The position numbers were made by a program, and so were the translations under genes. Below the pieces are notes generated by a model. The model made no database searches. It had not been told where the DNA came from and saw nothing but the letters and a program-made list of their open reading frames with translations. 64,000 bases of DNA, from assembly GCA_002841765.1 (NCBI GenBank), contig PHAV01000004.1:59075-123074 (forward strand). The letters are read 5' to 3'. Source of the stretch: Deltaproteobacteria bacterium HGW-Deltaproteobacteria-4. Lineage in GTDB: Bacteria > Desulfobacterota > Desulfuromonadia > Desulfuromonadales > UBA2197. Shown in pieces: positions 32,972-49,244 of this stretch; position 1 is the first letter of the stretch, and every line of letters starts with the position of its first letter.

Positions 32972-35809
32972 CTACTTAATCCTGACTCTGAATTTGACGT
33001 TAAAGGCCGGGTGATTCGTGCCATCTGATCCGTTGAAGGTTCCGCTTAAGGGAATCTTGATATCGGTAACAGACGGGTCGCACTGGTTACTGTCCGGCGC
33101 GGTATTGCTCTTGAGGTAGATATCTGCACCGTTATTTCCGGAGAAGGCAAGGTTGTCCGTTGTGCTGGCCAGACTGGTAAAGGTGTAACTGAGGCCGCTC
33201 GGAATGGGACCATCGGTAAAGAGGACCGGTCCGGAACCGGCCCCATTGATATCACCGACAAAAAGTTCGGTGTTGGCCGGAATCGGGTCGGTAATGACGG
33301 TGCTGTTGTTGTCAACGGCTCCGGGGCCGGTATTGCTGACCGAAATAGTGTATGTCATAAAAGCGCCGGGAATCGCTTTGGGCAAGCTTGTACCGTTGAT
33401 CGGGTCGGAAAAGGTCTGCGCTGATTTAATCACCAGGAGACTCGGTAACGGACTGATCACGGAGGCGCTTTTTATGCCGTAATCGCTGACCGTCCCTTCC
33501 GTCCCCTCGAAAGCATGAACCAGTGCGGTCCAGTTGCCAGAAGTGTTGAGCGTATAGGGGCCATATTCGAAGGTTTTAGTTGCCGGGGTGGTCAGGGCGC
33601 TGAGTTCTGTCATCGGTCTGGCTGTGACCGCGACCGTGCCGTCAGGTTTGGTGAGCGTGAGGGTTGGTAGTGTAGTCGGCTGACTGGCGTTGATGTCATA
33701 ACTGCCGAAGGGATCGCTGATTGTGCTGCGGATGTAGACAATTTTCCCTGGAGCGGCAGAGGTGACAACGCTCCCGGCCGGGTAGGCAGCGTCGTAGTAG
33801 GTAATGGAGTCGACATTGATGACGGTGCTGGCCGGGAGTTCGACCCGCGATCTCCCCCAGGTGGGGTTGGTGATGTAAACGCGCATACTATCAGTCACTG
33901 CGGCGGCAGTGTTGGTGACAGTTAACTCCCACCGGTTGCCTGCGGCACAGGTGACTGGTGTTGTCCAGGGTGGTGTCGGCGTTGACAAATCGAATCGTAC
34001 CATATCCTGATTGATGGTTAAATTGATCGTCTTGGTGTTGGTAAGGGTCGTCCCTCCCGAGGAACATTGCAGATCAACCTTGACGGTGCGGTTGCCGGGG
34101 TTGCTGTTGTACCGCAGGAGCAGATAGACCGGAACTGTGCTGTTGACCTTCGGATCGATAGTGATAGCCGCGGCGGCACCCGGATCCATCGTCCAGCGCT
34201 GCAAACCAGAGAGGGCGATTGTTGCATAGGATGTTGAGCTGTTGGGGGTGCGTGAGAGTTTATGCGCCGGTGTTGAAGTGCTATCGTACAGATAGAGCAG
34301 CTTGTTGCCGCTCCCTGTGACCGTCGCCGCCTGAACGGTGAGTGTCGGCGCTGCTGGTGTCCCCCCGAGGCCGCCGGGATTAGTGACGGTGGCGCTGTTG
34401 GCGATCGGTGTCCCTGCCGGGGTGGCGGCGGCAACGGTGACTTCGAAGACGATGGTTACGCTCCCTGACGCCGGCACAGTAATGCCGGTGAGATTAAGGT
34501 AGCCGGTGCCATTGGTCCCGCCGCCGGTTGTCGAGCTATTGCCGGCTCCGGCGGGGATACTTATAACCGTAAAGTTGTTGACATTGGCGGGGATATTGTC
34601 AGTAACAGAGACGCCGGTGGCAGTGTACCCCGAGTTCTCCTTGAGAGTGATGGTATAGCGCAGGACATCGCCGGGTTGAAGATCATCACCGTTCTTGTCA
34701 AGGACCCCCTTGGTCGAAGTCGAGAGGTCGGGAAAGTTTGCACCGATAATAGTATTGGTGTCACTGGCGCTGGTGCTTTTGTCGGTGACGGAGACAGAGG
34801 CGGTATTGGTGACGGTTCTCGTTCCTGAAGGGGCGGGACTGGCGGCCAGGGTCGCGTTAATGGCGAAAGTCACGCTGCTGTTAACCGGCATGGCAGGAAT
34901 GGTGATTCCGGCCCCCTGCATCGCGGCCACGGTCGTGGCCGGACAGGTCGTCCCGATCGCGCTGCATGAGACGGTGCTGACGGTGAGGTTAGGGGCAACC
35001 GGGTCGGTGAAGACGACATTGCTCAGAGCTGCACCGGTGGTGTTGGTAATTACGACTGTGTAGGTGGTGGCGGCGCCAGGGCTAAGCGCCGTCTTACCGT
35101 CGCTTTTACTGATGGAGGGGAGGACTACGACGTTGATCGAACCGTATTCGACATTAGTGGCGAGCAAGGTGTTCGGCGAGTTGCATTTAGAAGTCGTCCC
35201 GGGGAGGGCATCGGCAATCGAAGTGCAATTGGCTCTTTTTTGATGATCCCAGCTGACGACAAAGGGAATAAAGAGTTTGCCATTACTCAGGTCGACGGCT
35301 TGGCAAAGGACCGGGACATCGTAGAGTCGCACGATGCCCGAGCCTGTGCCGCCGTTAATAGTAGGATTGCCGTCGCCGCAGGTATCGGTGCTGCCGTACT
35401 GTTCGATATCGGTAAAGGGGCTAATAGTTGGCAGGATGCCGACAGTGCAGCTATCAGCGCCGCCACTGGCAGGGAGGAGCTTCGGCGTCTTGCCGTCCCG
35501 GGAAAGGAAGATGCCGACATCATAACGATCAGGCTGGGCAAAATTAACCGTAATATCGAGGTTGGCGGTGAAGGAGCTACCACCGACACAAGCGGTGGGG
35601 GTTCCCGGCGCAACAGAGATGCCGGTAATAGACACATCAGCGGCCGTGCACCCCAGATTTGAGTTGTAGCGCGCCGCCACACATTCGTTGTCGCCGTAGG
35701 CCATTACTGCCGACGCCAAGGTAAGTATGAAGGCACATGTTAAAGCGACAGCGATCAGTGCAGAGCGCAAGAGTTGTCGCCGGTGTAGACCATTATTTGC
35801 AAAGATCAT
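32972..35809 (-). CDS. Secreted 945-aa DUF11-repeat protein (protein J), paralog of the 1389-aa protein but lacking the lectin-like head
   Basis: Signal peptide with an RR motif (NNGLHRRQLLRSALIAVALTCAFILTLASAVMA). DUF11-type repeats (e.g. LQPGDVLRYTITLKENSGYTATGVSVTDNIPANV). The C-terminal ~230 aa are near-identical to protein E and end in FNVKFRVRIK. Confidence 0.85.
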   Translation of the reverse strand: MIFANNGLHRRQLLRSALIAVALTCAFILTLASAVMAYGDNECVAARYNSNLGCTAADVSITGISVAPGTPTACVGGSSFTANLDITVNFAQPDRYDVGIFLSRDGKTPKLLPASGGADSCTVGILPTISPFTDIEQYGSTDTCGDGNPTINGGTGSGIVRLYDVPVLCQAVDLSNGKLFIPFVVSWDHQKRANCTSIADALPGTTSKCNSPNTLLATNVEYGSINVVVLPSISKSDGKTALSPGAATTYTVVITNTTGAALSNVVFTDPVAPNLTVSTVSCSAIGTTCPATTVAAMQGAGITIPAMPVNSSVTFAINATLAASPAPSGTRTVTNTASVSVTDKSTSASDTNTIIGANFPDLSTSTKGVLDKNGDDLQPGDVLRYTITLKENSGYTATGVSVTDNIPANVNNFTVISIPAGAGNSSTTGGGTNGTGYLNLTGITVPASGSVTIVFEVTVAAATPAGTPIANSATVTNPGGLGGTPAAPTLTVQAATVTGSGNKLLYLYDSTSTPAHKLSRTPNSSTSYATIALSGLQRWTMDPGAAAAITIDPKVNSTVPVYLLLRYNSNPGNRTVKVDLQCSSGGTTLTNTKTINLTINQDMVRFDLSTPTPPWTTPVTCAAGNRWELTVTNTAAAVTDSMRVYITNPTWGRSRVELPASTVINVDSITYYDAAYPAGSVVTSAAPGKIVYIRSTISDPFGSYDINASQPTTLPTLTLTKPDGTVAVTARPMTELSALTTPATKTFEYGPYTLNTSGNWTALVHAFEGTEGTVSDYGIKSASVISPLPSLLVIKSAQTFSDPINGTSLPKAIPGAFMTYTISVSNTGPGAVDNNSTVITDPIPANTELFVGDINGAGSGPVLFTDGPIPSGLSYTFTSLASTTDNLAFSGNNGADIYLKSNTAPDSNQCDPSVTDIKIPLSGTFNGSDGTNHPAFNVKFRVRIK

Positions 35810-35907
35810 GATTTTCCAGACAATTGGTCAGGACAATAATTCATCGAGTATAAGATGGTGGCTGATGATAAGCCGCTGTCGTTGCACCGGCATAAGGAAT
35901 GTAACTT

Positions 35908-38900
35908 TTAAAACTGTTGCAGTGCCTCACGCACTGAATTCTGGTCGAACTTGAAGCGGAACTTGACGAACGGTCCCTGGGCGGTGAAGTCAGCGGCAGA
36001 GAAGTCGCGGTCGGTAAAGCCGATAAAGTTATAGCCGACACTGAACCAGGCATTCTTGACCAGATTGTAACCGATGGAGGCGCCACTACCGTATTTTAAT
36101 TGTTTCGCCTGCCAGGAATGAAGCACCTTACCGGTGACGCCGACATCCCATTTACTTGTGAGATCATAGCGCCCTTCCAATCCCGTCAGGTCGGTGTAGC
36201 CGCTGTAGTCGTGTTCATCGATCGTTTCATTAACGTACTTGGCGCCGTATTGCAGCGAAAGCTGCGTCTTGCGATTATGACTCTTCCAGTTAGCGTTGAT
36301 ATTGTTGATCAGCCGCCAGTTGTCATAATTAAAGTCGCCGCCCTGCTGCTTGTCGAAGAGATAATCGAGACGGTTCAGCACAATCCAGGCAGTCTCTTGC
36401 GGCCGATAAGCGAGACTGAAACGGAGATCGCCGTTGGTCTCCTTGGCACCGGCAATACCGTTGGTTTTAAAAATCTGAGCGGCAGCCCCTAAACCAAGAC
36501 CGTCCTGAACTTCGCCGTAGATGCCGGTAAAGAGACCGAACTTGTCTTCCTCATCCGAGGTCCGCATCTCCAGACGACCGGTCCAGGACCAGTTTTCTTC
36601 CTTATACGAAGCCCCGCCAGTGATGGCCGTATAGTCCGAGGTGCCGGCAGCGGCCGGGACATTGACGTTAAAAGGTGCAGTCCCTGATTTTCTGATGGTG
36701 TCGCTCCGGTCGAGTCCGGCGTCAACACTCCATTTCTTCGAGATTTGCCAGGACTGTTTGAGCCCGCTTACCGAGAAGACACGCGTACCATTCTCTGAAG
36801 ATTGCTGTTCCATGGACGAACTGACCTGTCCCCCTGCCCACGGTGAAGATCTCAGGCCGATCCGCGTCATCTGCGTCCGTTCCAGCGAACCCCGGCTCAA
36901 TTCGTGGGCAATAAAGAAGCTCACGCTTTCGCTTAACCTGTAATCAGCACCGATCAAAGTTCGCGTCGGAAAGTCGGCGTTGTCATTGCTGTTGTGCAGC
37001 GATTGGTCATGTTCCGCTCGCAGGGTCAATTTGTCGCCAAAGAGGCTATAGGTGCCGCCGCTGATAAATTGGTCTGAAGTATTATTCTCACCATTTCCCA
37101 AATTATCCTGGGCGTGTCTCAACCCTGCGCGCAGGGAATAACCCTTTTCACTGAAAGCGGTTTGAACTTCAGCCATATCCCTGACAGCGTCCGTGCCAAG
37201 ATTGTTTTGGCGGAAGGCTCCGGTCTGCAAGCTGACCTTTTCATTCCAGCGGTAAGTTCCATCCACGCCGATCTTTCTCGTACCGCTTTCACTTCCCATC
37301 TGTTGACCCAGACCGAAATCATTATCCTGTTCACGCAGATAAATCTTGCCATCGACGACCTTGGTCCGGTGCGAAATTTCTGCCAGATAAGCGATACCGC
37401 TGGCGCTGCTGCCAACGAAGTCGTTTTCGGTTGTTGCCACTTCCGCTTTGATGATCGTCTCTTCCGTGAGCTTGATGGTGGTATCGAGCCCGGAGAGATT
37501 ACCTTCGCCGCCAACACGACCTTCATGGACATGAGTGGCGCCGACTTCGACGCGCTTATCCATGAAGCGCAGTGCTCCTCGTCCGCCGTAATTGTAGGAT
37601 TTGTCGCCGGTATCTACGGATTCATAGTTAATGACGATGTAGATCGGATTAAAGTTTTCATCACGATGGTAAACAGGGCTCTTGAAGAAGAGGGTCCCCT
37701 TTTCGTAATCGATGTCGTAGTCGATATGCCGGTTCAGCTTTTGTGAAGAGATCACCACTTCACTTTTGAACCGATCGCGACTTTCGATGGTGATCGTCTC
37801 GGAGTTAATGACGAGATCTGTTCTTGACAAGCGGTAAAGACCGGAAGTGCCGTCGCCGCGCAGTTCATCCTTGACAAAGGCCTGGTTGGTGTCGCTGACA
37901 AAGAGATTGAAATCAAGATTTTCGCTCTTCATCTCCGACTTCAGACCGTTAAAATTCCGGCTGTAGCGGGAAAGTTCGGTCACCGAGAGCCCGGTATCAT
38001 AATCACCAAAGAGCGCATAGAACTGATCGCGCTCAATCTTGAGATAAAGACTGCGGGCACTGGCGGCCTCATACTGTTGTGACGAAGCGTCGCCGTAAAG
38101 GGTGTAATACTGCTGCGGGTCGATCGTGCCGTAGAGACTTCCGGCCTGACGCATTCCCGCTTTAGCGCTGTCGTAGGCTGCGGTCAGAAGCCATTTCCCC
38201 TGGATCATCCCTTTGGCAAAGAAGGCGAGTCGGCCATCTTCATAATATTCATCATCGATCTGCGAAGCTTTGATGTTCTCCAGATTTCCCGAGAGGGAGT
38301 TATATCCCGCTGTCCCTTCGGCAAAACCGACAATGATCCATTCCCGTTCACCCGGAGTCAGCCAGGCGCGCACTTCGCTTTCTCCCTTAACGAAATTGAA
38401 GCGCAGGGTCGCCTCGCCGGTCTGGGTGGTCGGTTGCAATTCAATGCGGGCGATACCGTCTTCGTCGACCAGATACTTCAGGCGTGCACTCTTGGCAAGC
38501 AGCAGCGGGTTCTCTTTGAGGTCTTTTTCCAGTTGCAAAGGGAGGTAAGGGGGGTCGAGTTGATACTCACCGACCAGTCCTGCACGGGCAGGGTGGCCGT
38601 CTTTGTCGGTCAAACGGACAGCGATCACCGAAGGGAATTTGCCATCTGCGGTCAGCCGCGATTGACCCGGCATCACTTCAGCTTTAACCGGAGAGGTCGA
38701 ATAGTGCAGAGTGCGGGCAACACGGCGCACTTCCTGGCCATCGACAGAGCTTTCAACCGCTTCAAAGAGGTTGTCACCGTCGCTCAGGTGAATGCCGATC
38801 CAGAGGCTAATTGCGACCTGGTTGTCACCCCGCTTTTTGGTGCCGTCAAGATAAAGGGGATCGACCTCTTTACCGTTGAGCAACAGTTTGAGTCTCTTCT

Positions 38901-41682
38901 GCGGATCATGAGTCACAGCGATCTTGGCACTGGGGATGGCGGGATAAAAACCGTTATAGGGCCAGACAAAATTGAGACTGGGCTGAGCTGTTTCGAGCCA
39001 CGTATTATCGAATTCCGGCATGGTGCGGGCGATTTTACGCTCTTTTCTGACCTTCTCCGCCGCCGAGACTTCGGCCAGTTTCAAGGCAGTGACATCGACC
39101 GTTTTAAGGCCACTGTATTCCTTGATATTTTCGAGTTTGGTCCATTGATTGACCAATTCTGTCAAAATCTTTAATTCCACCCGGCGATTCAGTGCGCGGC
39201 CTTCTGCGGTTTCATTGCTGGCGATCGGTTCATCCGGACCCTTGCCGGCAATCGTCACTTGCTCCGGCAACAGGTTAAGGCCGGCCTGCAGATAATCGAC
39301 GACTGATTTCGCCCGGGCCTTCGAGAGTTCATAGTTGTCGGCCATGATGTGTCGACTGCGAGGGGCGATGCGGGTGCTATTGGTATGACCGGTGGCAGAG
39401 ATCTGGCTCACATGCACATTTTTAAATTCGGCGATGATCCCGTCGAGAACTTTTTTGTCAGGATCGGAAAGCTCGTAACCAAACTCATCAAAATACGGGC
39501 GCAGAATAATCGCCGGGATCGACCTGCGTTCGCTGGTGGATTCATTCTTAAGGATATTATCGACCAGCGGCGTGCGCTTGTTCTTCTCTTCGCTGGTATT
39601 GAAGGTCAGCAGCGCTTTCGCCGTCAACTCGCCGTTCTTGAGATGTGGAACCAGTGTCCCCTTTAATCTGATCTTGCCTGTCCAATCCGCCGGACTGTCT
39701 CCCAGGCGATAGGTGAGAACACTTTCCGTCACTTCCGGGTCGGCCAGAGCAAGACCATCGCGGCTGCTGCTAGCGCCTTGATAAATCACCCCATCGGGGA
39801 GGATCACTGTCAAGCGCATATTCGTCGTCGGCACTGCGCCGACATGGAGTGTCACCGTATAAGTGACGTCATCACCGAGCGTGCTTGCCAACTCAAGTCC
39901 GACAGATCCCTGCACCGGTGGGGCTTCCGGCTTTTTCTTGGTGTAAAAATCAGCGCGCCAGAGGGTTCCGCCTTGCAGATCGACAAATTGGGAGAAGGGC
40001 GTCCCGGCAAAGCGACTATTCTCTTCACAGCTGATGAGTTCATACTCGTTCGGAATCGTCTCCAGGTCGAGTTGAACAACATGCGTCCCGGCCTGAATTC
40101 CTTCAAAGTGATACATCCCCTGCAGGTCGGTGATGACGTAAGTACCATTTTCCAGGTAAAGACGTACGCCGGCAAGTCCATCACCCTCTGCGCCGTCATT
40201 CGGGCAGCCGTTGGGATAGACGCGACCGACAATCGTCGTCTTGCTGGAGAAGAGATCCTCTTTAACGACTATTTCGAACTTGGCAATATTGGAAGTGATG
40301 CCGCCGCTGCCGGTGGCGGTGGCAATATTGACCGCCGGTCCCAAGGGTGCCGCGACTGCCACTTCGACGACATAAGTGATGGTCATACTCTGCCCGGCGG
40401 CGAGAGTGCCGACGGTAAAGAGCATGCTTCTGCCGTCGGTTGAGAGCGTCGGGTCGGCAGCACTGACGCCATCGATTTTGGTCGAGCCTTTGCGGTAGCG
40501 CAGGCCAAGGGGGAGGCGGTCGCTGAGCACAACGCTGTTGACAGCGAGAGTCCCGGTATTCTCGGCGGCAATGCGATATTGCAGGAAATCACCGATGGCG
40601 ACGATCGTTTTCGAGGCGGTTTTGTTCAGACGCAGCCAGGTCTGCTGGGGATCGAGAGGGATATCGATATGGAGCGCCGGCCCGGGATTGATCAGGAAGA
40701 CCTCGCCACGGGATCCGGGGTTAATGGCAAAGGGGGCACCGGGGAGGGTCTGAATCTCACTGGTGGAGACCGTCGAGGGGGCAAGATAGCCCGAACCCGC
40801 TGGCGGTGTCACTACGAGGAGATATCTTCCCGGCTCGACAAAAGGAAAACGATAAAATCCATCCGGGAAGGTATAGATGCGTCCAGAGCTGTCGGTGACT
40901 GTTCCCCCTGAAGTTATCGTCGAGGGATAGATGCTGACACCGTCATCGCCGTAAATAGTCGCCGGCAGACCGGTAGCGGCATTGATGAAGGTAATGGTCG
41001 CACCATTCACCGGCAAACCGGTCATGCTGTCAAAGACTATCCCGTAGGGGTCAACAAGGGCACTCGCCGCCGAACTGTCAGTGCCATCGACGACATCAGT
41101 GTAACGCCCCTGAACCCGTGTATTCTGCTGGACGAAGAGGAGACCGTTCCCGGAGGTACTGGTGCCGGTGGTTGTTGACTGGATATAACCGGTGAAGATG
41201 CCGGTATCCGGACCGGTCTCAGTGAGACGCAAGATCTCGGATTCACTCGTTCCCGGAATGGTCAGGGTGACAATGACTGACTCGGCGACGGCGGGGTCAA
41301 GATTTTGGTCGAGGTCGCTCAAACGCAGAAAGAACGGCTCGTTTTCATGGTAGACCGTTGCCAGCACCAGCGGCAGGGTGCCGAGAGTCAGGGGTGCCGA
41401 TGCGCCGAGGGGAAGGGGGGGCGGCATCGGGATAAAGCTGCCGGCAGCAAAATAGCTGGTCGTTGCCACTGGCAGGAGTAAGAGTTTTTCGGGATCAGTG
41501 ACTGAGGGGGCATAAGTCAGGAAATCGAGTTGCGACGGGGTGCGGATGACGGTTGAGACCAGGTTCGATTCTCTAGTCTGGGGCAGAGTGTCGACGTGAT
41601 AGCTGGCATAGGCGGTATTGTCGACAGTTACGGCGGCATGAGCAGAAGGAGCGAGGAGAACAAAAGCCAATAAGAACGTCAT
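35908..41682 (-). CDS. Giant (~1924 aa; up to 2004 aa if TTG 41922 is used) outer-membrane protein (protein I): DUF11 / SdrD-B-like modules + internal OmpA-C peptidoglycan-binding domain + large C-terminal beta-barrel-like region
   Basis: Signal peptide MTFLLAFVLLAPSAHA|A at ATG 41682. DUF11 (IVAIGDFLQYRIAAENTGTLAVNSVVLSDRLPLGL). SdrD-B/CarboxypepD-like (IVGRVYPNG...GVRLYLENGTYVITDLQGMYHFEGIQAGTHVV). OmpA-C (SATGHTNSTRIA...LSKARAKSVVDYL...AEGRALNRRVELKI). About 850 C-terminal aa are rich in alternating-strand patterns, Gly/Tyr/Asp turns, and end ...GPFVKFRFKFDQNSVREALQQF. Confidence 0.85.
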   Translation of the reverse strand: MTFLLAFVLLAPSAHAAVTVDNTAYASYHVDTLPQTRESNLVSTVIRTPSQLDFLTYAPSVTDPEKLLLLPVATTSYFAAGSFIPMPPPLPLGASAPLTLGTLPLVLATVYHENEPFFLRLSDLDQNLDPAVAESVIVTLTIPGTSESEILRLTETGPDTGIFTGYIQSTTTGTSTSGNGLLFVQQNTRVQGRYTDVVDGTDSSAASALVDPYGIVFDSMTGLPVNGATITFINAATGLPATIYGDDGVSIYPSTITSGGTVTDSSGRIYTFPDGFYRFPFVEPGRYLLVVTPPAGSGYLAPSTVSTSEIQTLPGAPFAINPGSRGEVFLINPGPALHIDIPLDPQQTWLRLNKTASKTIVAIGDFLQYRIAAENTGTLAVNSVVLSDRLPLGLRYRKGSTKIDGVSAADPTLSTDGRSMLFTVGTLAAGQSMTITYVVEVAVAAPLGPAVNIATATGSGGITSNIAKFEIVVKEDLFSSKTTIVGRVYPNGCPNDGAEGDGLAGVRLYLENGTYVITDLQGMYHFEGIQAGTHVVQLDLETIPNEYELISCEENSRFAGTPFSQFVDLQGGTLWRADFYTKKKPEAPPVQGSVGLELASTLGDDVTYTVTLHVGAVPTTNMRLTVILPDGVIYQGASSSRDGLALADPEVTESVLTYRLGDSPADWTGKIRLKGTLVPHLKNGELTAKALLTFNTSEEKNKRTPLVDNILKNESTSERRSIPAIILRPYFDEFGYELSDPDKKVLDGIIAEFKNVHVSQISATGHTNSTRIAPRSRHIMADNYELSKARAKSVVDYLQAGLNLLPEQVTIAGKGPDEPIASNETAEGRALNRRVELKILTELVNQWTKLENIKEYSGLKTVDVTALKLAEVSAAEKVRKERKIARTMPEFDNTWLETAQPSLNFVWPYNGFYPAIPSAKIAVTHDPQKRLKLLLNGKEVDPLYLDGTKKRGDNQVAISLWIGIHLSDGDNLFEAVESSVDGQEVRRVARTLHYSTSPVKAEVMPGQSRLTADGKFPSVIAVRLTDKDGHPARAGLVGEYQLDPPYLPLQLEKDLKENPLLLAKSARLKYLVDEDGIARIELQPTTQTGEATLRFNFVKGESEVRAWLTPGEREWIIVGFAEGTAGYNSLSGNLENIKASQIDDEYYEDGRLAFFAKGMIQGKWLLTAAYDSAKAGMRQAGSLYGTIDPQQYYTLYGDASSQQYEAASARSLYLKIERDQFYALFGDYDTGLSVTELSRYSRNFNGLKSEMKSENLDFNLFVSDTNQAFVKDELRGDGTSGLYRLSRTDLVINSETITIESRDRFKSEVVISSQKLNRHIDYDIDYEKGTLFFKSPVYHRDENFNPIYIVINYESVDTGDKSYNYGGRGALRFMDKRVEVGATHVHEGRVGGEGNLSGLDTTIKLTEETIIKAEVATTENDFVGSSASGIAYLAEISHRTKVVDGKIYLREQDNDFGLGQQMGSESGTRKIGVDGTYRWNEKVSLQTGAFRQNNLGTDAVRDMAEVQTAFSEKGYSLRAGLRHAQDNLGNGENNTSDQFISGGTYSLFGDKLTLRAEHDQSLHNSNDNADFPTRTLIGADYRLSESVSFFIAHELSRGSLERTQMTRIGLRSSPWAGGQVSSSMEQQSSENGTRVFSVSGLKQSWQISKKWSVDAGLDRSDTIRKSGTAPFNVNVPAAAGTSDYTAITGGASYKEENWSWTGRLEMRTSDEEDKFGLFTGIYGEVQDGLGLGAAAQIFKTNGIAGAKETNGDLRFSLAYRPQETAWIVLNRLDYLFDKQQGGDFNYDNWRLINNINANWKSHNRKTQLSLQYGAKYVNETIDEHDYSGYTDLTGLEGRYDLTSKWDVGVTGKVLHSWQAKQLKYGSGASIGYNLVKNAWFSVGYNFIGFTDRDFSAADFTAQGPFVKFRFKFDQNSVREALQQF

Positions 41683-41934
41683 GCAGAGATGACGGCAAAG
41701 TTCAGCGCGTTTCGCGAACACTTCACTGCAGGAAGGACTCGCGGTACGGTCTGAAAGAAGCCCCGCAGCGAAGGAAGAACGACGGCTTTGCATCGCCACT
41801 CTTCCCCCGATGCGGGTCATGATGAAGTGTGCAGCACAAAGGCGCAACACGGCGCTGCCGCCGGGAATGATCCCGGCGGTGAAGCGTCGTATTACTGCCT
41901 TTATGCTGCTCAGAGTCGACAAACTGTTTCCTGA

Positions 41935-43179
41935 TTACTGAATAATAACGTTGAAAGTTAATGTGAAGACTTCACCAGGCTTCAATTCCCCGACCGTGTA
42001 ACTGGCTTCGGCGGGGAGCAAGGTTGCAAGGGTGGCCGTGATTGCCTGCCCCGAAAGCTCAACACCATCGGCATCGCTGGTCGTTGTGTAGTACTTAGCA
42101 ACATTTCCGCCAGCAAGGCCGCTACCGGCATTGCCGATTCGACTCCCGGTCACTGATGCCTTGAAACCAGATCCTGCTGCAGATTCAGCTGCAGGCGTTG
42201 CCGGCGTGCTGAAATCAGTCAACAAATCAGCATCCATGAGCAAGCTGGCAATCAGGGTGTCACCGATGCTGGTGAGGGTCGCGGAGGAGGGAGCTCCCGC
42301 GTCATTGGTAATCGTCACAACATATTGCACAATGGCACCGGGGATCGCTTTCGGAGTGGTGGTGTAATTGATCGGATCCCAGAGCGTCGTTGCTACTTTA
42401 TTGACAGAAATATCAGCCGAGGAAACAACGAAGACGCTATAAGCCGAATCTGCCCCATCAAGATTGCCATCTTCTGGACCCGTCCCGGCAGCCGTATCAG
42501 CCAGAACAACGGGGACCGCTGCCGTACAGCCCGGACCATTATAAGTCGATGCATTGGTCGTCTCTGCACCCAGGGCAGCTGCAGTACCACCGGCAGCTGT
42601 ATTTGCATTCAGCGCATAAACCGCTTTACTGCCATTGGCCAAGGCAACAGCAATAGCCGGGGTTCCGGTGGCAACGATATAAACGGTTCTAGATGTATCT
42701 GGTGCAAGTTCGTCGATGTAAGTGGCAACATCTAATACGTCATAACCGACTGCGTCGCCCGATTCGACAACGACGACGACGCCGGAAGCGTTAAAGGTAT
42801 CGACGGAATCGTTCGCTGCCCAGACGGTGTAAGTGCCATTTGCTTTAGTGACCGGGGTAAGGATGTAATCCTGAACGGTATTACCAATATTTGTGACGGT
42901 AAATTCTAACACCGCTTGCAGGGTGCCGGTGCCGGGCACAACAGAGACCCCGGGAGCCGCGTCTGCCGTTATGACCGTGAGATTGACCTTACTCGCGACC
43001 TCAAAAGGTGTAGCAGTGCCATTTTCTACAGGTTGAGTCACTCCTCCGACAGCGTAGGTAAGGGATGCCGTGTTCGTGATGTCTGTACAGACCGGTGTGC
43101 CTGCGGCCAATGCCGATAGCGGCGTCATTGCCGCGAAAGCGGCAGCCAAAAGAAATGCTGATAAACGGGTTCTTTTCAT
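41935..43179 (-). CDS. Secreted 415-aa DUF11-type pilin-sized protein (protein H)
   Basis: AGGAGAG lies before ATG 43179. Signal peptide MKRTRLSAFLLAAAFAAMTPLSALA|AGTP. The mature N-terminus TDITNTASLTYAVGG is shared with protein F. Terminal module WDPINYTTTPKAIPGAIVQYVVTITN. Ends FTLTFNVIIQ. Confidence 0.85.
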   Translation of the reverse strand: MKRTRLSAFLLAAAFAAMTPLSALAAGTPVCTDITNTASLTYAVGGVTQPVENGTATPFEVASKVNLTVITADAAPGVSVVPGTGTLQAVLEFTVTNIGNTVQDYILTPVTKANGTYTVWAANDSVDTFNASGVVVVVESGDAVGYDVLDVATYIDELAPDTSRTVYIVATGTPAIAVALANGSKAVYALNANTAAGGTAAALGAETTNASTYNGPGCTAAVPVVLADTAAGTGPEDGNLDGADSAYSVFVVSSADISVNKVATTLWDPINYTTTPKAIPGAIVQYVVTITNDAGAPSSATLTSIGDTLIASLLMDADLLTDFSTPATPAAESAAGSGFKASVTGSRIGNAGSGLAGGNVAKYYTTTSDADGVELSGQAITATLATLLPAEASYTVGELKPGEVFTLTFNVIIQ

Positions 43180-43263
43180 GGTGCTCTCCTTTTTTGCTGG
43201 TTGTAGTTGTTCTTGCGGGACAATTCCCAGGTGTAAAAGCCAACCCCCTATTTCCAATGTTCG

Positions 43264-43758
43264 TTATTTCACTTTAGCTTTGTAAGAGACGCTGCCCTTG
43301 GCGCCGTCTTGCAGGGCTCCTTCGAATGTCCAGCGGATGTGGGTGTAGTCCGCTGCGCTGGCCGGTTGCTCCTTTCCTTCGGCATCCTTGATCTTCAATT
43401 TGTCGGCCGCGGCGAAGATTTGACCCTTATCAACAGAGAAATCGATGCGCGCCCCTTTCCCCTCGGCCGTATTGTCAAGATAGAGCATATGCTCCGGCAG
43501 CGGATTGTTGATGACCACATTCGTTGCCGGTTTATCTCCCTGGTACTCATAGTGCGTAGTAAAGATGATCGTATCGCCGGGGGTAACATTGGTATCTGCG
43601 GCGGAGACACGAACGGTCTCCTGCTCCCCTTTATCATTCTTGACGATGATATCGATCTCGGCGGTTGACTTGAGTTCGATCCCTTTTTTCTCGGCGGCAC
43701 TGGCGGGGAGGGCGACCAGCACGAGAAGGGATAAAATGGCTAGCAATTTTTTTGTCAT
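43264..43758 (-). CDS. Secreted single-domain DUF11 protein, 164 aa (protein G)
   Basis: Signal peptide MTKKLLAILSLLVLVALPASA|AEKK. One DUF11 repeat (VTPGDTIIFTTHYEYQGDKPATNVVINNPLPEHMLY). Ends SVSYKAKVK. Confidence 0.85.
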   Translation of the reverse strand: MTKKLLAILSLLVLVALPASAAEKKGIELKSTAEIDIIVKNDKGEQETVRVSAADTNVTPGDTIIFTTHYEYQGDKPATNVVINNPLPEHMLYLDNTAEGKGARIDFSVDKGQIFAAADKLKIKDAEGKEQPASAADYTHIRWTFEGALQDGAKGSVSYKAKVK

Positions 43759-43808
43759 AAGTGACTCCTATCTGTCTGGTTCTCTTGAAAAATTTTACGT
43801 TTATCGCT

Positions 43809-44822
43809 TTAGTTGATCGTCACATCGAAGGTGATAGTCTGCTCCGGGGAAGCATTGGTCAGATCGCCGAGACCGACGGTGACCGTCACTGGCGCGCCAG
43901 CGACACTGCCGACATCAAGATCAGCGCCATCGCTTAGCGGTGCGCCGTTTAATTTAAGGGAGCTAACGACATAGGTGGAGTTATCAGGTATTTCGTCGGT
44001 GATCACCACGTCTGCGGCAGTACCGACACCGGTGATGGAGGCTTTGATGCTGTAGGTAAGGATGGCGCCGGGGATTGCCTTCGGAGTGACGAAGAGATTA
44101 GTCGGGTCCCAGGTAATTACCACCGATTTGTTCAAAACCAGAGAAAGGAGGTTGACGGTATAGGTCCCTTCTGACGAGTGTTTTCCGTCACGAGTAGTAT
44201 CACCGGCGGCACTGCCGGCATTATCGGCAAAGATGACATCAACGCCGGCGGTATTAGGGCCGACAGTTGCAGTTGTCACAGTCGTGGTGCCGGCATCGAC
44301 TGTCGTAGCAACAAGTTGATAATCTGATATGTCCCCACTGACCGCCCCTGCCGGGGTGTCGGCAATGATCAAGATTGCAAGGCTGTCATCCGCATCAACG
44401 TCACCAAAGGTGGCAGCGTTGACATAGAGAGTGTCACCGGCATCCAGAACGCCGGGAGTGGTGCCGTTGTCGAGGAAGATGCGGACATTATCCATGACAA
44501 TGCCGGCGCTGTTGGTTGCGTCCAGGGCATAGCGCTGCGTGGTATTGCCTTCGTTCTTGACTGAAAAGACAAGGGCTTGATCGGTTGATCCGGGTAAAAC
44601 AGTGGCGTCACCATTTTTAGTCACCGTCAGGTTGACCTTGTTGTCGACAACGATATTCGGAGCCGATGCGGTCTTGGTCACCGGAGTAGCGCCATCGTTA
44701 TAGGTGGCGGTTGCCGTGTTAGAGATATCCGTCCCCGACGGGGTTCCGGCTGCATAGGCCGCTTGAGTGAGCGGATAGCAGAGCGCCAGGAGCAGAGCGA
44801 TGGTGGCAATCTTTTTTGTCAT
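43809..44822 (-). CDS. Secreted 338-aa DUF11-type pilin-sized protein (protein F)
   Basis: AGGGAGG lies before ATG 44822. Signal peptide MTKKIATIALLLALCYPLTQAAYA|AGTP. TDISNTATATYNDG. Terminal module WDPTNLFVTPKAIPGAILTYSIKA. Ends QTITFDVTIN. Confidence 0.85.
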   Translation of the reverse strand: MTKKIATIALLLALCYPLTQAAYAAGTPSGTDISNTATATYNDGATPVTKTASAPNIVVDNKVNLTVTKNGDATVLPGSTDQALVFSVKNEGNTTQRYALDATNSAGIVMDNVRIFLDNGTTPGVLDAGDTLYVNAATFGDVDADDSLAILIIADTPAGAVSGDISDYQLVATTVDAGTTTVTTATVGPNTAGVDVIFADNAGSAAGDTTRDGKHSSEGTYTVNLLSLVLNKSVVITWDPTNLFVTPKAIPGAILTYSIKASITGVGTAADVVITDEIPDNSTYVVSSLKLNGAPLSDGADLDVGSVAGAPVTVTVGLGDLTNASPEQTITFDVTIN

Positions 44823-44907
44823 GGTGTACCTCCCTTTCTTTTCTTGTGTTGAACCGGGTTTGAAAAGTTGTGAGCGAATAAAAAATCCATATCTTGTTCC
44901 TTTCTGA

Positions 44908-47900
44908 TTATTTGATCCTGACTCTGAATTTGACGTTGAATGAGGGGTGATTGGTTCCATTTGAACCATTAAAGATGCCGATTAAGGGGATTTTTATATT
45001 GGTAACTGTCGAGTCGCAGCCGTTAATGTCCGGTGCTGTATTGCTTTTGTCGTAATTCGTGCCGCCATTGCCGGAAAAGGCGAGATTGTCAGTGGTGCTG
45101 GCCAGACTGGTAAAGGTGTAGCTGAGGCCGCTCGCAGTCGTGCCATTGTTAAAGAGGACAGGACCGATCGATGGCCCGGCACCGTCGAAGTCGTCGACAA
45201 AGAGTTCGGTGTCGGCCGGAATCGAATCGGTAATGACGGTGGTGTTGCTGTCAACTGCGCCGGCGCCAAAGTTGGTGACCTGGATGGTGTAGTCGACAAA
45301 AGCGCCGGGAATTGCTTTGGCTCCTGCTCCTTCACCATTAACCGGGTCGGAGAAGACCTGTGATGATTTGACCACCAGCAGGTTCGGCATCGGCACGATG
45401 ACGCTCAAGGCTTGCAGTGCGTAATCACTGACCGTCCCCTCGGTCCCCTCATTGGCAACGACGCGGGCGGTCCAATTTCCGGCCGGGCCGCCGGCCGGGA
45501 TGGTGTAGGGGCCGTACTGGTAGATCTTGGTGGCGGCGTTTGAATCGTAGGCTACGCTCATGGCGACCGGAGCAGGCGAACCAATCCGGGTAACACCGGA
45601 GGGGTCAGTCAAAGTCAGGGTGGCGCCGGTGATATCGTAACTGCCGAAGGGGTCACTGACCGTGGCGCGGATATAGACCGTGCTTCCGACAGTCAGCGAG
45701 GTAACGCTGCTGCCGCCAGGGTAGAGGGCAGTATGGAAGGTGATGTCGCTGTTATTGATGTTGATGACGTTTTTCGAGTTGATAGTGACCATCGACGAGT
45801 TTCCGGTCGACGGCGCTGGGTAGACGTTGATGTTGCGTCCAGTTCCGGTGCCTCCCTGGGTGTTGGTGATGTCCATGATCAGGGCGTTGCCGCTGGCACA
45901 GGTGTAATCAGTTGACGATACAGGAGTGAGGGTAAAGTCGTAGCGGACGGCGCCTCCGACGACTAAGTCGGCGCTTAGTGAGGTTGTGGCGACGCTCGTT
46001 CCGCCGCACGTCAGCGTAATCGGGATGGTATAGGTACGGTTGCTGTTGGTCGAGAGCCAGAGGGTCACCGGAATATTGCCGTTGCTGATCGTCACATCCG
46101 ACTGCAGGGCCGGGTTGAGCGTCCAACTCTGGGTAATGCTGCCGCGGGGGATCGCGACAATAGAGCCGGCTGCGGTCGGCATCGGTGTGCGCGAGAGTTT
46201 ATAGCTGGGGGTTGAGCTGTTGTTATAGAAGTAGAGGGGTTTGTTCCCGGAACCCGGTAGCGAGCCGCTATTGACGATCAGTGCTGGCGCATCGGGATTG
46301 GCGCCGATGCCGCCGGGGACGGTGACCGTGGCACTGTTGTCGATGACCGTCCCCGTCGCGGTGCCGAGGGGGATGGTGACATCGTAAATGAGCGTGACGC
46401 TGCCGCTGGCCGGGACGGTGATGTTGGTGATATACAGGTAGCCGGTACCATTACCGCCGGTACCGAAGGGGGTCGAGAGGTTGGTGGCGCCGCCCGGCAG
46501 GGGGAGAATGACACTAAAACCGCTAGTGTTGTTGGGGATGGTGTCGGTCACCGACACGTTGCTGGCGCCAACTCCGGCAGTTTCAGTCAGGGTGATAGTG
46601 TAGCGGATGACATCACCGGCCAGGGGGTCGCCGCCGCTGGTGCGGTTAATCCAGTTTTTCGTTGAGGTCGAGAGGTTAGGAATAGCGACAGTTGTGGTGT
46701 CGCTGACGTCACGGGTCTGGCTCGCCAGGCCGGTGGTATATGTGGCGCGGGTAACGACAGTGTCAATCGTTCCGTTCGTGGCGCTGCCCGGAATCGTCTC
46801 ACGCACCAGGATGCAGATATTTTCGTTGGCTTCGAGATTGACCGCCGCAGTGATATCCGATTCGCCGGCATCGAAGCTGCCGTTGCAGTTGTTGTCGCGC
46901 ACATAGGTAATCGCCGGCCAACCCCCCTGGGTACGGCTGTTTGTGGTAAACGTGACATTGCCGCGGGCTGTGGCGGTGAAGATATGCGCGTAGTAGACCG
47001 GTGTTGATGAGTTGCCGACTGCGCTTAAAGGGGTCGGTGTGAAGTTGATAGTGATCGGCGGCGGTATATCGCCGAAAATGAGATTGAAGTAGTCGGTATA
47101 GAGGGTATAGGCAAACTGCTGATATTCACCGGCAATGGTGTAAGTACTGCCGGTCGTGCCGGAGTTATAGCTGACCGAGGTGTAGCCGGCGAGATTGTTT
47201 TCATAGATACGCAGGGTGGCGCTGGCGGTGTTGGTGAAGAGGGCGAAGTTGCCGCCGGCATCGGTGGTGACGGTATCGTAGGTGGTGGTTCCGGTGCTAT
47301 TGCGCAGCGTCAACGTCACCCCGGCGATGCCGGTCTCGGCGGCATTGAGAATACCGTCATAAGCGGTGGTGATACTGCCGTTGAAGCCGTCATCCTTGAT
47401 CACTTTGCCGCTGATGCGACTGCCGTTGTAAAGGAAGAAGTTCCGGTTGGTCAGATTGGCGCCGCTGGCGACAACTCCGCTCAGGGTATAGTTGATGGGG
47501 GTGACATAGATCCAGTTGGCGCTCGGAAAGCTCGGGTCGTAGACATTGACGGTGTTGGTGGAGCTGAGAATGACGACATAATCACCGTAGCTCGGGACTC
47601 CGGAAAAAGTGTAAGTGCCGAGAGTAGTGCTGACCTGCACAGGGGCGACGACAGTGGTACTCAGGTCGCTGGCGCGAAAAAGTTTGGCATAATAGGTCTG
47701 GCCAGTGACCTGGGATTCGCCGCCGTCGCGCACGCCGTTGTGGGCGATGCCGCCGCTAAAACCGTTGTCATTGTACACCGTGCCGCTGATGCTGATCGTG
47801 CCGCTGCTGACGGTGGTGCTGACACTGGCGCTGTTGTCGGCCGGCAGATAGTCAATGATGCCGGCCGGCGGCGTCAGGGTGGCGGTGTTGACCAGGACCG

Positions 47901-49077
47901 TGCCCTGTGGGGTAGCGGCGGCGACCGTGCCGGTGATGGTATAGGTGGCAGCGCCGTTAAAGGGGAGGGTGGCCGTGGTGTTAATGTTGTTGCCGCTCCC
48001 TGCAGCGGCGCCGCAGGTTCCGCCACCGGAGCCGGCGCAGGTCCAGGTAACACCGGTTAACGCTGCCGGGACAGTATCGACGATCGGTACGTTGTTGGCG
48101 ACGGTCACCAGGTTGGGGCCGTAGTTGCGGGCGGTGACGGTATAGGTCAATGCGCCGCCGGGAGCGACGGTCGGGGCAGAAGCGGTTTTCGCGATAGCGA
48201 GATTGATGTTTATCGGTAGGTTGTCGATGGCGAGATTGCGGATTTCGTGATAGTTGGTCGAACCGCCGGTACTGGCGGCATAGCCGACCTTGACCGTGCT
48301 CGGGATCGGCCGCATGGTGTAAAGGGTGTCGACCAGATAGGTCAGGGGCTGGTTGTAGCCAAATTGCATAAAGACATCGACACGCATGTATTCCGGTGCG
48401 GCGACCGGCGTCAGGTAGATGACGACCTTGCGATACTGGCTGCTGAGTTGGCCGGGGCGAAAGGCCTGATTGTACCAGAGGGTGCCGATGTTGGCAGCCG
48501 TGCCGCCAATGTAGTAATAGGCGCCGAGGGAGTGGTCGTAGGGGCCGCGCACTGCCACTGAATTTTGCCGCTGGCCCGGACCACCCAGCCGACCTTCGGT
48601 CGGATTGGAAAAATTGCCGTACTCGTCGATACCGACACCGATATAGCCGCCACTGAGACCGGGGGAAACAGGCGCGACGGTCTTTTTATCGTAGCCAAGG
48701 GAGCCGCCCGAGGCGCCGACCTGAAAGGTTGTAGCGTTATAGGCGCCGTCAAAGAGATAAATACTGTAACCGTCGGCACCGTTGCCGCCCCAGGTGGCGT
48801 AGTCGAACTGGATGACGACTCCCTGTGAAATGTCGAAGGAGCTGTCATACATGGCAAAGCCGGATTGGTTGCCGGTCGGTTCGGTCAGACGCAGCCAGCC
48901 GTTGCCGGGGGCGTCGACACCTGTGCTGGCGGTGAGGTAGGCTGCACCGCCAATGACCCAGCCGGGGGCGGTGGCACCGGTCATTGGCTGGTCGAGGAGG
49001 GCAGCCTGACCCGGCAAAGCCAGGCCGATGGCCAGGATCAGGATTGCGATAATAATTAATGGGTTTCGATTTTTCAT
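44908..49077 (-). CDS. Secreted 1389-aa adhesin-like protein (protein E): L-type-lectin-like head + DUF11 + two SdrD-B-like modules + shared C-terminal region
   Basis: Signal peptide MKNRNPLIIIAILILAIGLALPGQA|A. Lectin-like motifs (GWLRLTEPTGNQSGFAMYD..., GADGYSIYLFDG, GGYIGVGIDEYGNFSNP). DUF11 (VAPGGALTYTVTARNYGPN). SdrD-B-like (ISGTVYNDNGFSGGIAHNGVRDGGE...GTYTFSGVPSYGDYVV; ISGKVIKDDGFNG...GNFALF). Ends FNVKFRVRIK. Confidence 0.85.
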   Translation of the reverse strand: MKNRNPLIIIAILILAIGLALPGQAALLDQPMTGATAPGWVIGGAAYLTASTGVDAPGNGWLRLTEPTGNQSGFAMYDSSFDISQGVVIQFDYATWGGNGADGYSIYLFDGAYNATTFQVGASGGSLGYDKKTVAPVSPGLSGGYIGVGIDEYGNFSNPTEGRLGGPGQRQNSVAVRGPYDHSLGAYYYIGGTAANIGTLWYNQAFRPGQLSSQYRKVVIYLTPVAAPEYMRVDVFMQFGYNQPLTYLVDTLYTMRPIPSTVKVGYAASTGGSTNYHEIRNLAIDNLPININLAIAKTASAPTVAPGGALTYTVTARNYGPNLVTVANNVPIVDTVPAALTGVTWTCAGSGGGTCGAAAGSGNNINTTATLPFNGAATYTITGTVAAATPQGTVLVNTATLTPPAGIIDYLPADNSASVSTTVSSGTISISGTVYNDNGFSGGIAHNGVRDGGESQVTGQTYYAKLFRASDLSTTVVAPVQVSTTLGTYTFSGVPSYGDYVVILSSTNTVNVYDPSFPSANWIYVTPINYTLSGVVASGANLTNRNFFLYNGSRISGKVIKDDGFNGSITTAYDGILNAAETGIAGVTLTLRNSTGTTTYDTVTTDAGGNFALFTNTASATLRIYENNLAGYTSVSYNSGTTGSTYTIAGEYQQFAYTLYTDYFNLIFGDIPPPITINFTPTPLSAVGNSSTPVYYAHIFTATARGNVTFTTNSRTQGGWPAITYVRDNNCNGSFDAGESDITAAVNLEANENICILVRETIPGSATNGTIDTVVTRATYTTGLASQTRDVSDTTTVAIPNLSTSTKNWINRTSGGDPLAGDVIRYTITLTETAGVGASNVSVTDTIPNNTSGFSVILPLPGGATNLSTPFGTGGNGTGYLYITNITVPASGSVTLIYDVTIPLGTATGTVIDNSATVTVPGGIGANPDAPALIVNSGSLPGSGNKPLYFYNNSSTPSYKLSRTPMPTAAGSIVAIPRGSITQSWTLNPALQSDVTISNGNIPVTLWLSTNSNRTYTIPITLTCGGTSVATTSLSADLVVGGAVRYDFTLTPVSSTDYTCASGNALIMDITNTQGGTGTGRNINVYPAPSTGNSSMVTINSKNVININNSDITFHTALYPGGSSVTSLTVGSTVYIRATVSDPFGSYDITGATLTLTDPSGVTRIGSPAPVAMSVAYDSNAATKIYQYGPYTIPAGGPAGNWTARVVANEGTEGTVSDYALQALSVIVPMPNLLVVKSSQVFSDPVNGEGAGAKAIPGAFVDYTIQVTNFGAGAVDSNTTVITDSIPADTELFVDDFDGAGPSIGPVLFNNGTTASGLSYTFTSLASTTDNLAFSGNGGTNYDKSNTAPDINGCDSTVTNIKIPLIGIFNGSNGTNHPSFNVKFRVRIK

Positions 49078-49208: not shown

Positions 49209-49244
49209 CCTGAATAACTGCTTTTTCTGCGCAGTTAGATCATT

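Follow-up and report, generated by a model that had tools for sequence, protein, structure and literature searches.

Within a 64,000-nucleotide (nt) stretch of contig PHAV01000004.1 from Deltaproteobacteria bacterium HGW-Deltaproteobacteria-4 (the window, by which we mean that whole stretch), six genes on the minus strand, here called E, F, G, H, I and J, appear to encode the parts of a surface fibre. On balance, we judge it probable that this fibre has the order tip-(F/H)n-I and is assembled by hairpin complementation, that its joints are probably locked by Lys-Asn bonds, and that the giant protein I serves as base anchor and probably as export pore. All the results are computational, and come from sequence analysis and predicted structures. 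The six open reading frames (ORFs) of the cassette are these, with lengths in amino acids (aa).

44908-49077, minus strand: E, 1389 aa, candidate tip adhesin
43809-44822 from the ATG, minus strand: F, predicted pilin, 337 aa precursor, with donor hairpin, Ig-like domain and acceptor domain
43264-43758, minus strand: G, secreted protein of 164 aa, homologue of the acceptor domain
41935-43179 from the ATG, minus strand: H, second predicted pilin, 414 aa precursor
35908-41922 as an ORF, minus strand: I, giant candidate base protein, 2004 aa ORF
32972-35809, minus strand: J, 945 aa, second, acceptor-only, candidate tip protein

The six ORFs are co-directional and lie where a previous sequence-only reading of the window had placed them, with F and H re-measured from their ATG codons at 337 and 414 aa. 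The gaps between them are 85, 50 and 84 nt, then an ambiguous one before I, and finally 98 nt. That reading had also proposed signal peptides on all six proteins, and a Sec signal peptide ending in A-x-A can indeed be read at every N-terminus. None of the proteins has a lipobox Cys, and in the pilins the conserved mature start xGTxxGTxIxN follows the A-x-A directly. The protein ends ...DVTIN, ...NVIIQ and ...RVRIK carry neither an LPXTG motif nor a hydrophobic tail.

The domain that recurs in these proteins is DUF11, which now goes by the name CLIPPER and has been identified as a CnaA-like isopeptide domain; the bond of CLIPPER and CnaA domains is made by a triad of Lys, Asp and Asn (PMC12617251). 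We scanned the six proteins with Pfam and NCBIfam profiles. Against the Pfam CLIPPER profile (cut-off 24.6 bits) E scores 52.8, G 27.5, I 54.0 and J 56.8 bits. F reaches 19.2 bits by Pfam, but 32.5 by TIGR01451 (cut-off 24). The DUF11 modules reported earlier are therefore above threshold in E, G, I and J, and in F by TIGR01451 only; H has no direct match to a CLIPPER profile, and belongs to the family only via its 38% identity to F.

In the internal CLIPPER domains of E, I and J the triad is complete. The terminal domains of E, F, H and J contain the Lys and the Asp, but the strand with the Asn is absent from the domain and sits instead at the N-terminus of F, H and I. Sequence comparison bears out the tail motif that had been described as common to E, F, H and J. 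The two halves of the divided domain lie as follows in the pilins, with residues in mature F numbering.

44649-44750, minus strand: F donor hairpin, mature residues 1-34, AGTPSGTDISNTATATY..., with invariant Asn11
43812-44147, minus strand: F acceptor domain, mature residues 202-313, CLIPPER/CnaA-like, with Lys208 and Asp252 and without the last two strands
43054-43104, minus strand: H donor hairpin, AGTPVCTDITNTASLTY
42388-42411, minus strand: H acceptor Lys, in ISVNK
42250-42273, minus strand: H acceptor Asp, in SIGDT

Just six residues are invariant in an alignment of 59 F- and H-type pilins from several phyla. Two of them, Thr3 and Asn11, belong to the N-terminal motif xGTxxGTxIxNxAxxxY, and another two, Asn66 and Asn69, to the middle domain. 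The C-terminal domain contributes Lys208, on its first strand, and Asp252, which is part of an ITDxIP motif. Because the triad is invariant in the pilins, we infer a bond between Lys208 and Asn11, and a self-catalysed isopeptide lock at this position is, as a prediction, fairly probable.

The relationship to isopeptide domains is seen in both sequence and fold. The best matches of the pilin profile among sequences in the PDB, both of them weak, are the CLIPPER structure 9IFR (E 0.023) and Cna (E 0.07). When the pilins are aligned with Cna, Lys208 and Asp252 fall opposite the Lys in VHKS and the Asp in IKDQI, and the pilins stop at the end of the Cna strand INYKTKI. We take these Cna residues to be the isopeptide Lys176 and Asp209, the bonded Asn presumably lying on the next strand. 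A fold search with F 202-313 returned CnaA-type domains of SpaA, CppA, PitA and Cnm (N2) at middling scores, Z 7.3-7.5. A hidden Markov model (HMM) of the 36 N-terminal residues of the mature pilins matches the internal, complete CLIPPER domains of E and J, with an independent E-value (i-E) of ~1e-4. These matches begin exactly after the strands ...TLIYDVTIP and ...TIVFEVTVA, at LGTATGTVIDNSATVT and AATPAGTPIANSATVT, and the F end ...ITFDVTIN joined to the mature start AGTPSGTDISNTATATY resembles the same succession of strands. The placement of the matches argues that the C-terminus of one pilin and the N-terminus of the next make up one ordinary CLIPPER domain. As read from sequence, the C-terminal domain of the pilins appears to be truncated one loop before the Asn-bearing strand, with the N-terminal hairpin as its missing two-strand end.

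We think it likely that this complementation occurs in trans, between subunits. In a model of two copies of mature F the interface is head to tail, with residues 1-38 of one copy against 202-258, 297 and 312-313 of the other, and with 9-20 and 24-38 meeting 202-258; contact agreement between runs was at least 95%, and the predicted local distance difference test (pLDDT) value of the partner at least 89. Strand 8-19 is antiparallel to 244-253 (pairs 252:13, 249:15 and 246:17), and strand 22-34 is parallel to 203-215 (pairs 204:24, 206:26 and 208:28). We take this to be the geometry of a CnaA-type domain, in which the hairpin would supply the penultimate strand, bearing the Asn, and the last. 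A metagenomic protein of 696 aa, P0257, is a natural tandem of two pilin units. The last strand of its first unit, ...TIRFSVTVN, runs directly into the hairpin of the second, ASQAPNTSIANTGSVAY, and acceptor n is therefore paired with hairpin n+1. In another pilin-like protein, P0283 (1335 aa), a large insertion of repeats separates a hairpin and domain at the N-terminus from a complete pilin unit at the C-terminus.

Four proteins of the cassette (E, F, H and J) are acceptors and three (F, H and I) are donors. E begins with a lectin-like head, continues as a stalk built of CLIPPER and SdrD_B-like modules and finishes in an acceptor domain with Lys1237 and Asp1284 that ends ...FRVRIK, and it has no donor hairpin. 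Of the composition originally given for E, the CLIPPER modules and the shared tail stand; the lectin head is only sub-threshold (32.8 bits against a cut-off of 78.3), and the SdrD_B matches in the operon proteins are borderline. J had been called a headless paralogue of E. The paralogy holds, with 51% identity over the last 626 aa, but we read J as having a different head; it matches TIGR04226, and its acceptor residues are Lys795 and Asp841. Since E and J are acceptor-only, they can be placed only at the distal tip. The E-like proteins of ~30 loci have highly variable heads; at least 90% of the sequences retain the acceptor Lys and Asp, and no hairpin motif was seen at their N-termini, which were read by eye. 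The variable heads of E and J suggest binding functions. In four loci of Gammaproteobacteria and Thiohalomonadales (L059, L062, L068 and L083) the pilin between G and I has an E-type tail at its C-terminus, and tail types have therefore been exchanged between tip and shaft subunits.

The third donor hairpin belongs to the giant protein I, whose elements are as follows.

41548-41634, minus strand: I donor hairpin, directly after the signal peptide (AHA, then AVTVDNTAYASY...), with Asn102 in ORF numbering
39184-39495, minus strand: OmpA-like peptidoglycan-binding domain, residues 810-913, 47 bits against a cut-off of 27.2
38356-38973, minus strand: two Ig-like beta-sandwich domains before the barrel, residues ~984-1189, Z 8.7-9.9
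35953-38043, minus strand: predicted giant beta-barrel, residues ~1294-1990, at least 30 long strands, no Pfam family

The hairpin of I is matched by the pilin-hairpin HMM with i-E 6.9e-6 and by hhalign with E 1.3e-5, and the motif is at the same position in the giant-protein homologues listed (99 aligned). Lys, Asp and Asn are all present in the internal CLIPPER domain of I (residues 430-560), and thus no incomplete acceptor for the hairpin is seen within I. As a donor-only protein, I can therefore occupy only a chain-ending position, and that it is the base anchor seems to us rather probable. The OmpA domain finds OmpA-like matches in the PDB down to E 8.7e-10. The start of I is probably near 41793-41817, because homologues conserve residues upstream of Met81. 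Over 41635-41817 on the minus strand there is an apparent long N-terminal extension before the hydrophobic core of the signal peptide, with a stretch ..A.RAE..RH.. that is conserved in close homologues; it resembles the extended signal peptides of large secreted autotransporter-type proteins. Conservation is strong over residues ~125-420 (40650-41550, minus strand), where 28 positions are invariant, among them an acidic motif resembling LTDLDQNLDP. This region showed no similarity to the middle domain of the pilins, and residues 85-300 gave no Pfam match.

The C-terminal part of I, residues 930-2004, was modelled from an alignment of 47 sequences, with a mean pLDDT of 72 and a predicted template modelling score (pTM) of 0.57. 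The DSSP string gives 30 long strands after model residue 497 and several more before it; the model also has a low-confidence stretch at 264-369 and a small beta domain at ~394-490. As a prediction the barrel is real. The OmpA domain in the middle of I, the C-terminal barrel and the aromatic end that the sequence-only reading had assigned to this protein are all found, the last residue being Phe, with a predicted barrel of ~700 aa. Among fold matches of the model are OccD2, aligned over 255 residues at Z 14.2, the 30-strand barrel SlpA of Deinococcus, aligned over 446 residues at Z 13.9, and MtrB at Z 11.1. SprA overlaps partially at Z 11.4 (6h3i, 422 residues aligned, root mean square deviation 12.6; also 8gl6), and the FimD usher (Z 9.2), LptD (Z ~8.5) and TonB-dependent receptors (Z ~9-12) also appear; all four score no better than generic porins. 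Foldseek, VIA-align and ESM Atlas returned only generic large barrels for the model of I, with the proviso that a query of 1075 residues may miss single-domain matches. A sequence profile of the C-terminal 1075 aa found no solved barrel relative in the PDB, and no Pfam family covers the barrel part of that region. Homology to an usher, autotransporter, LptD or intimin, any of which might have accounted for the locus, was sought by PDB-sequence profile and Pfam and not found. With only generic fold matches and no sequence relative, the barrel therefore falls into no recognisable class.

Over the last 1075 residues of I, identity is 51-83% in a set of 46 homologues that come from Nitrospirota, Desulfobacterota, an acidobacterial class and other groups. 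Of the 120 I homologues listed, about 16 have stalk domains but no OmpA Pfam hit and are ~300 aa shorter (for example P0018, P0019, P0026, P0030 and P0104). P0046, P0058, P0077, P0079 and P0082, of 1100-1300 aa, consist of the barrel only or of OmpA plus barrel. The short homologues could be split forms or truncated gene calls.

Protein G is related to the acceptor domain, with an hhalign probability of 97.1% (E 6e-11) and the same structural end point. Across the G family conservation is lost at the Lys, and most members have Asn in place of the Asp; invariant or nearly invariant positions elsewhere include the motifs FSxDxG and THIRW. A degenerate donor hairpin in its N-terminal extension was sought with the hairpin HMM, without a significant match (E 3.9). 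G is a secreted DUF11 protein of 164 aa, as had been said, but it is probably not the ordinary structural subunit that was then proposed, because the reactive Lys is missing and the Asp is usually missing too. We suggest, speculatively and as a guess more doubtful than not, that G is a non-covalent periplasmic cap or chaperone.

These elements can be combined into a scheme of assembly. F and H would be exported by Sec, and the hairpin of each subunit would insert into the incomplete domain of the subunit ahead, after which Lys208 and Asn11 would probably form a self-catalysed isopeptide bond. E and J would stand at the distal tip and F and H would form the shaft, with I closing the chain at the base. 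The stalk of Ig-like modules, OmpA domain and barrel of I, all in one polypeptide, would fasten the fibre. Growth would be from the base, as in chaperone-usher pili, with G as a possible cap or chaperone in the periplasm. The barrel is the simplest candidate for the pore, because the cassette contains no other secretion gene and the 1389-aa E must cross the outer membrane; whether it is the conduit for the subunits we would put at an even chance.

The cassette is widely conserved, with carriers in hundreds of species of Gram-negative bacteria. There are at least 1691 homologues of I, and relatives were confirmed at no fewer than 586 places (one genome per species), so the operon is not a chance pattern. 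Carriers among the matches listed include Geomonas silvestris, Geomonas limicola and Desulfatibacillum alkenivorans DSM 16219, and other assemblies among them are labelled Lentisphaeria, Latescibacterota, Zixiibacteriota, Gammaproteobacteria and Sulfuriferula. At 44 loci with at least 4.5 kb upstream of I, a G homologue is present in 42, a pilin between G and I in 37, and the full F-G-H core in 34. The E-like gene is usually upstream of the core and sometimes downstream of I, and the gene tables of three more contigs give the same E-like/F/G/H/I layout. The F-G-H-I core is thus kept across phyla. Annotation of the homologues goes no further than labels like "hypothetical", "uncharacterized repeat protein" or "OmpA family", and the full texts searched, in which subscription journals are thinly covered, do not describe the cassette. 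No second cassette was found in the host genome.

The sequence-only reading had recognised no usher, chaperone, sortase or known secretion component in or beside the operon. Our Pfam scans agree, with no usher, PapD, sortase or known secretion family scoring in the six proteins or the flanking genes. Sortase (PF04203) has no match in the whole genome (100% complete, 3.0 Mb), and the only usher and PapD pair of the host lies elsewhere, on contig 23 (94517-97218, plus strand; PapD_N 54.5 bits, Usher 78.1 bits). The co-conservation, the giant barrel and the absence of matches to known classes support that reading's view of a self-contained surface-fibre system, with pilins F and H, tips E and J and platform I, that fits no described class. 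None of the computational findings that would have spoken against it came up.

Completion of the pilin domain in trans has to be weighed against completion in cis. F and H could be circularly permuted two-domain surface proteins that fold onto their own hairpin with an intramolecular bond, and serve as separate adhesins or a coat with no polymer at all. Intramolecular bonds are the known role of CLIPPER domains (PMC12617251), and the strand directions in the two-copy model would allow a cis arrangement side by side. Several observations tell against the fibre proposed here. The model of the F monomer has a defined domain arrangement and is confident over the hairpin too, with strands at 8-19 and 22-34 (pLDDT 90-96; pLDDT 95.6, pTM 0.80), so packing in cis is physically possible. 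The two-copy model has an ipSAE of 0.54 (0.00 for the best of three controls), a score that passes the mark set for it but is the model's own confidence. Its calibration, in which 20 of 30 proteins with a solved pair structure and 1 of 23 solved as a single chain came up to that mark, is only rough here since the F pair was given its own input alignment. P0257 is one metagenomic sequence. At the base, the hairpin of I, if tethered beside the pore, should compete with elongation and could cap the chain early, and both an open barrel and the passage of subunits are hypotheses. Yet completion in cis fits poorly with E and J, which have acceptors with conserved Lys and Asp but no hairpin, and with I, which has a hairpin and no incomplete acceptor. 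In the two-copy model of F the hairpin is in trans, and P0257 fuses acceptor n to hairpin n+1. We therefore regard the cis arrangement as improbable.

A different question is what the barrel does. I might be no more than an OmpA-type fibrillar anchor whose barrel just holds the membrane, the other proteins leaving by an unlinked general pathway or staying in the periplasm. OmpA-anchored CLIPPER adhesins are known (PMC12617251), the low-confidence stretch and small beta domain of the I model could plug the barrel, and the modules of I vary, as in the homologues listed without an OmpA hit. Against this, the five-gene cassette moves as a unit across phyla with no other secretion gene, at least 30 strands are far beyond what anchoring needs, the longest alignments of the barrel are with SlpA and SprA, and a second locus of the host (L085, described below) pairs a related barrel protein with a 2850-aa CLIPPER adhesin; we find an anchor without export unlikely, though less so than completion in cis. 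The logic of the cassette also matches that of a divergent, non-covalent chaperone-usher system, with an incomplete fold, an N-terminal donor, lectin-like tip heads, a small periplasmic protein and a large barrel, so that G would be the chaperone, I the usher and strand complementation the only link. FimD (Z 9.2) and chaperone-usher pilins (Z 7.3-8.2) are among the fold matches. However, nothing in the cassette matches PF00577 or PF00345, FimD falls below generic porins, G resembles the acceptor domain and not the two-domain PapD, and an invariant Asn/Lys/Asp triad would be needless in a non-covalent fibre, all of which makes this reading quite unlikely. An uptake complex, with a SusC- or TonB-receptor-like barrel and surface binding proteins, would account for the CarboxypepD_reg match in I (36.7 bits), for the TonB-dependent receptors among the fold matches (Z ~9-12) and for one Atlas cluster that is automatically named 'TonB-dependent receptor'. 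But Pfam finds no TonB-dependent receptor or plug family in I, and an uptake system would have no use for donors and acceptors such as E, F, H, I and J, so we give this idea very little credence.

The fibre with trans complementation shares features with several known systems. Among the nearest in principle are the matrix fibres of BsaA, a TasA-family protein of Clostridium perfringens, for which 'donor-strand exchange and lock' has been described (PMC11580942, preprint). There an N-terminal segment enters the beta-sheet of the next subunit and a self-catalysed Asn-Lys lock (N35, K74, E56) forms with no sortase; but BsaA is Gram-positive, TasA-like in fold and SipW-processed, and has no outer membrane, tip or base subunits, or barrel (PMC11580942). 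The cassette has by contrast a split CLIPPER/CnaA-like fold, two donated strands, a catalyst Asp and an inferred bond, and none of the six proteins gives a TasA-family Pfam match; it may operate as these fibres do without belonging to them. The thread of the archaeon Sulfolobus acidocaldarius, built from Saci_0406, likewise combines donor-strand complementation with apparent covalent links and no sortase, but its bond runs from the alpha-amine at the N-terminus of Asp24 to Asn57 in subunit n+2, and it has an unrelated fold and no outer-membrane machinery (PMC9715654).

Chaperone-usher pili (type 1, P and CFA/I) also complete an incomplete Ig-like fold with the N-terminal extension of the next subunit, a feature found in F by prediction only and with two CnaA-like strands. 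They too have donor-less tip adhesins with lectin-like heads and a dedicated outer-membrane barrel, and growth from the base is implied in both. They differ in being non-covalent, with one donated strand, a PapD-type chaperone and a 24-strand usher with a plug, none of which is seen in the cassette, and the cassette differs from them in having its terminator or anchor fused to a barrel and an OmpA domain. A PapD-like chaperone (PF00345/PF02753) is matched neither in the six proteins nor in the flanking genes, and usher PF00577 is not matched in I, the model of which has at least 30 strands where the usher has 24. Sortase pili such as SpaA and RrgB have CnaA/CnaB-type domains with Lys-Asn isopeptides, covalent links and a division into tip, shaft and base, but there a sortase joins the threonine of LPXTG to a pilin-motif lysine, whereas the host genome has no sortase and the proteins no LPXTG. 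The adhesin B9T28_05395 of Acinetobacter silvestris (PDB 9IFR) has the same domain family, the Lys/Asp/Asn triad and an OmpA-like anchor, but it is one polypeptide of tandem complete domains with intramolecular bonds, while the cassette splits the domain across gene products (PMC12617251). In SpyTag/SpyCatcher and SnoopTag/SnoopCatcher a domain cut before the reactive strand reconstitutes and ligates spontaneously; these are laboratory constructs from CnaB, and the cassette would be a natural split of a CnaA-like domain for polymerisation.

Three other classes were compared. Type V pili (FimA/Mfa) depend on a lipobox Cys and Arg/Lys-specific proteolysis, and the pilins of the cassette lack that Cys. 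Type V autotransporters and inverse autotransporters have barrels of 12-16 strands, against at least 30 in I, which has no match to PF03797, PF03895 or PF11924. SprA of the type IX secretion system, which goes with other genes of that system, is a 36-strand barrel that the barrel of I overlaps partially by fold, with no Pfam match. Each pilus class tested fails at least one defining feature, and the parts of the cassette are not homologous to those of BsaA, the archaeal thread or chaperone-usher pili. We put forward, tentatively and with slightly less than even confidence, that the cassette represents a new and widespread class of pilus in two-membrane bacteria, with a natural Tag/Catcher-like split of CLIPPER and a giant barrel of a new family that exports the fibre and, by its own N-terminal hairpin, terminates and anchors it, and so constitutes a new outer-membrane pathway.

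The operon is bounded by the following transcription signals.

49352-49379, minus strand: candidate sigma-70-like promoter (TTAACG, 16 nt, TATAAT), directly upstream of the riboswitch, 10/12 consensus positions
49254-49334, minus strand: cyclic di-GMP (c-di-GMP)-I (GEMM-I) riboswitch aptamer, RF01051, 59.6 bits against a gathering score of 35, full length
49178-49211, minus strand: intrinsic terminator between aptamer and E, 15-bp stem and T-run
32917-32960, both strands: bidirectional intrinsic terminator shared with the convergent peroxiredoxin gene, A-run, GAGCAGCC/GGCTGCTC stem and T-run

The single promoter and leader suggested previously can now be identified more closely, the leader being a c-di-GMP-I riboswitch with a terminator. 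That terminator is 43 nt downstream of the aptamer and ~100 nt before the start codon of E, and is likely to be the expression platform. On this evidence transcription of the operon is predicted to be gated by a cyclic-dinucleotide riboswitch. The promoter is a consensus match only, and such sites are no more frequent in the region than in shuffled sequence. The aptamer has an A at the consensus position of the unpaired G before the first helix (P1). We take this to be the mark of the Geobacter GEMM-Ib subclass, which accepts 3',3'-cGAMP, and in that case the operon may respond to cGAMP and not to c-di-GMP. In two more Desulfuromonadales loci, L074 and L055, the cassette is likewise immediately preceded by a riboswitch of the same clan; a search of six further loci, mostly of Nitrospirota, found none. 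The bidirectional terminator expected downstream was read by eye, the automated terminator scan having failed to list it. In a metagenome-assembled genome of Geobacter (L031) four tandem c-di-GMP-I-GGC aptamers lie within 1.2 kb at 18528-19717 on the plus strand, ~5 kb downstream of the cassette. GSU1945, a riboswitch-controlled gene of Geobacter sulfurreducens, has a literature annotation of fibronectin type III protein.

The operon is flanked by housekeeping genes, for peroxiredoxin downstream and inositol monophosphatase upstream. Further upstream and co-directional, at 50619-54463 on the minus strand, are genes for an 809-aa TPR and DUF11 (Chlam_OMP6-like) protein, for a LysM-TPR protein and for a radical SAM enzyme. 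Together they seem to form a further module associated with the envelope, one that was not seen beside the cassette in the gene tables of three other contigs. The second host locus mentioned above, L085 (contig 5, 48000-67900), has overlapping genes at 9535-18087 and 4350-9575, both on the minus strand. One encodes a 2850-aa adhesin with several CLIPPER domains, whose C-terminal SdrD_B-like region resembles the stalk of I. The other encodes a protein of 1741 aa that combines OmpA-like domains with a barrel region sharing 28% identity with part of I, and in this protein the hairpin HMM finds no donor hairpin. L085 looks like an unsplit, unfused relative of the cassette.

If the proposed assembly is correct, Gram-negative bacteria have another class of pilus and secretion system beside the chaperone-usher, type IV, type V and curli systems, and it would be the first such Gram-negative pilus with self-catalysed covalent links between its subunits. 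Should the bonds form, an unbroken covalent chain would run from the tip of the fibre to a protein with a hold on both outer membrane and cell wall. The barrel of I is a good structural target for the question of how the outer membrane is crossed by large folded proteins, and new orthogonal tags for protein ligation could come from pairing the F, H and I hairpins with the acceptors of E, F, H and J. The cassette is present in relatives of Geobacter and Geomonas, in Desulfobacterales, Nitrospirota, sulfur-oxidising Gammaproteobacteria, Zixibacteria, Latescibacterota and Lentisphaerota, and it could help to explain firm attachment to minerals, electrodes or partner cells. In the Desulfuromonadales it appears to be wired to cyclic-dinucleotide signalling, and gating by the riboswitch would tie the fibre to surface-attached life.

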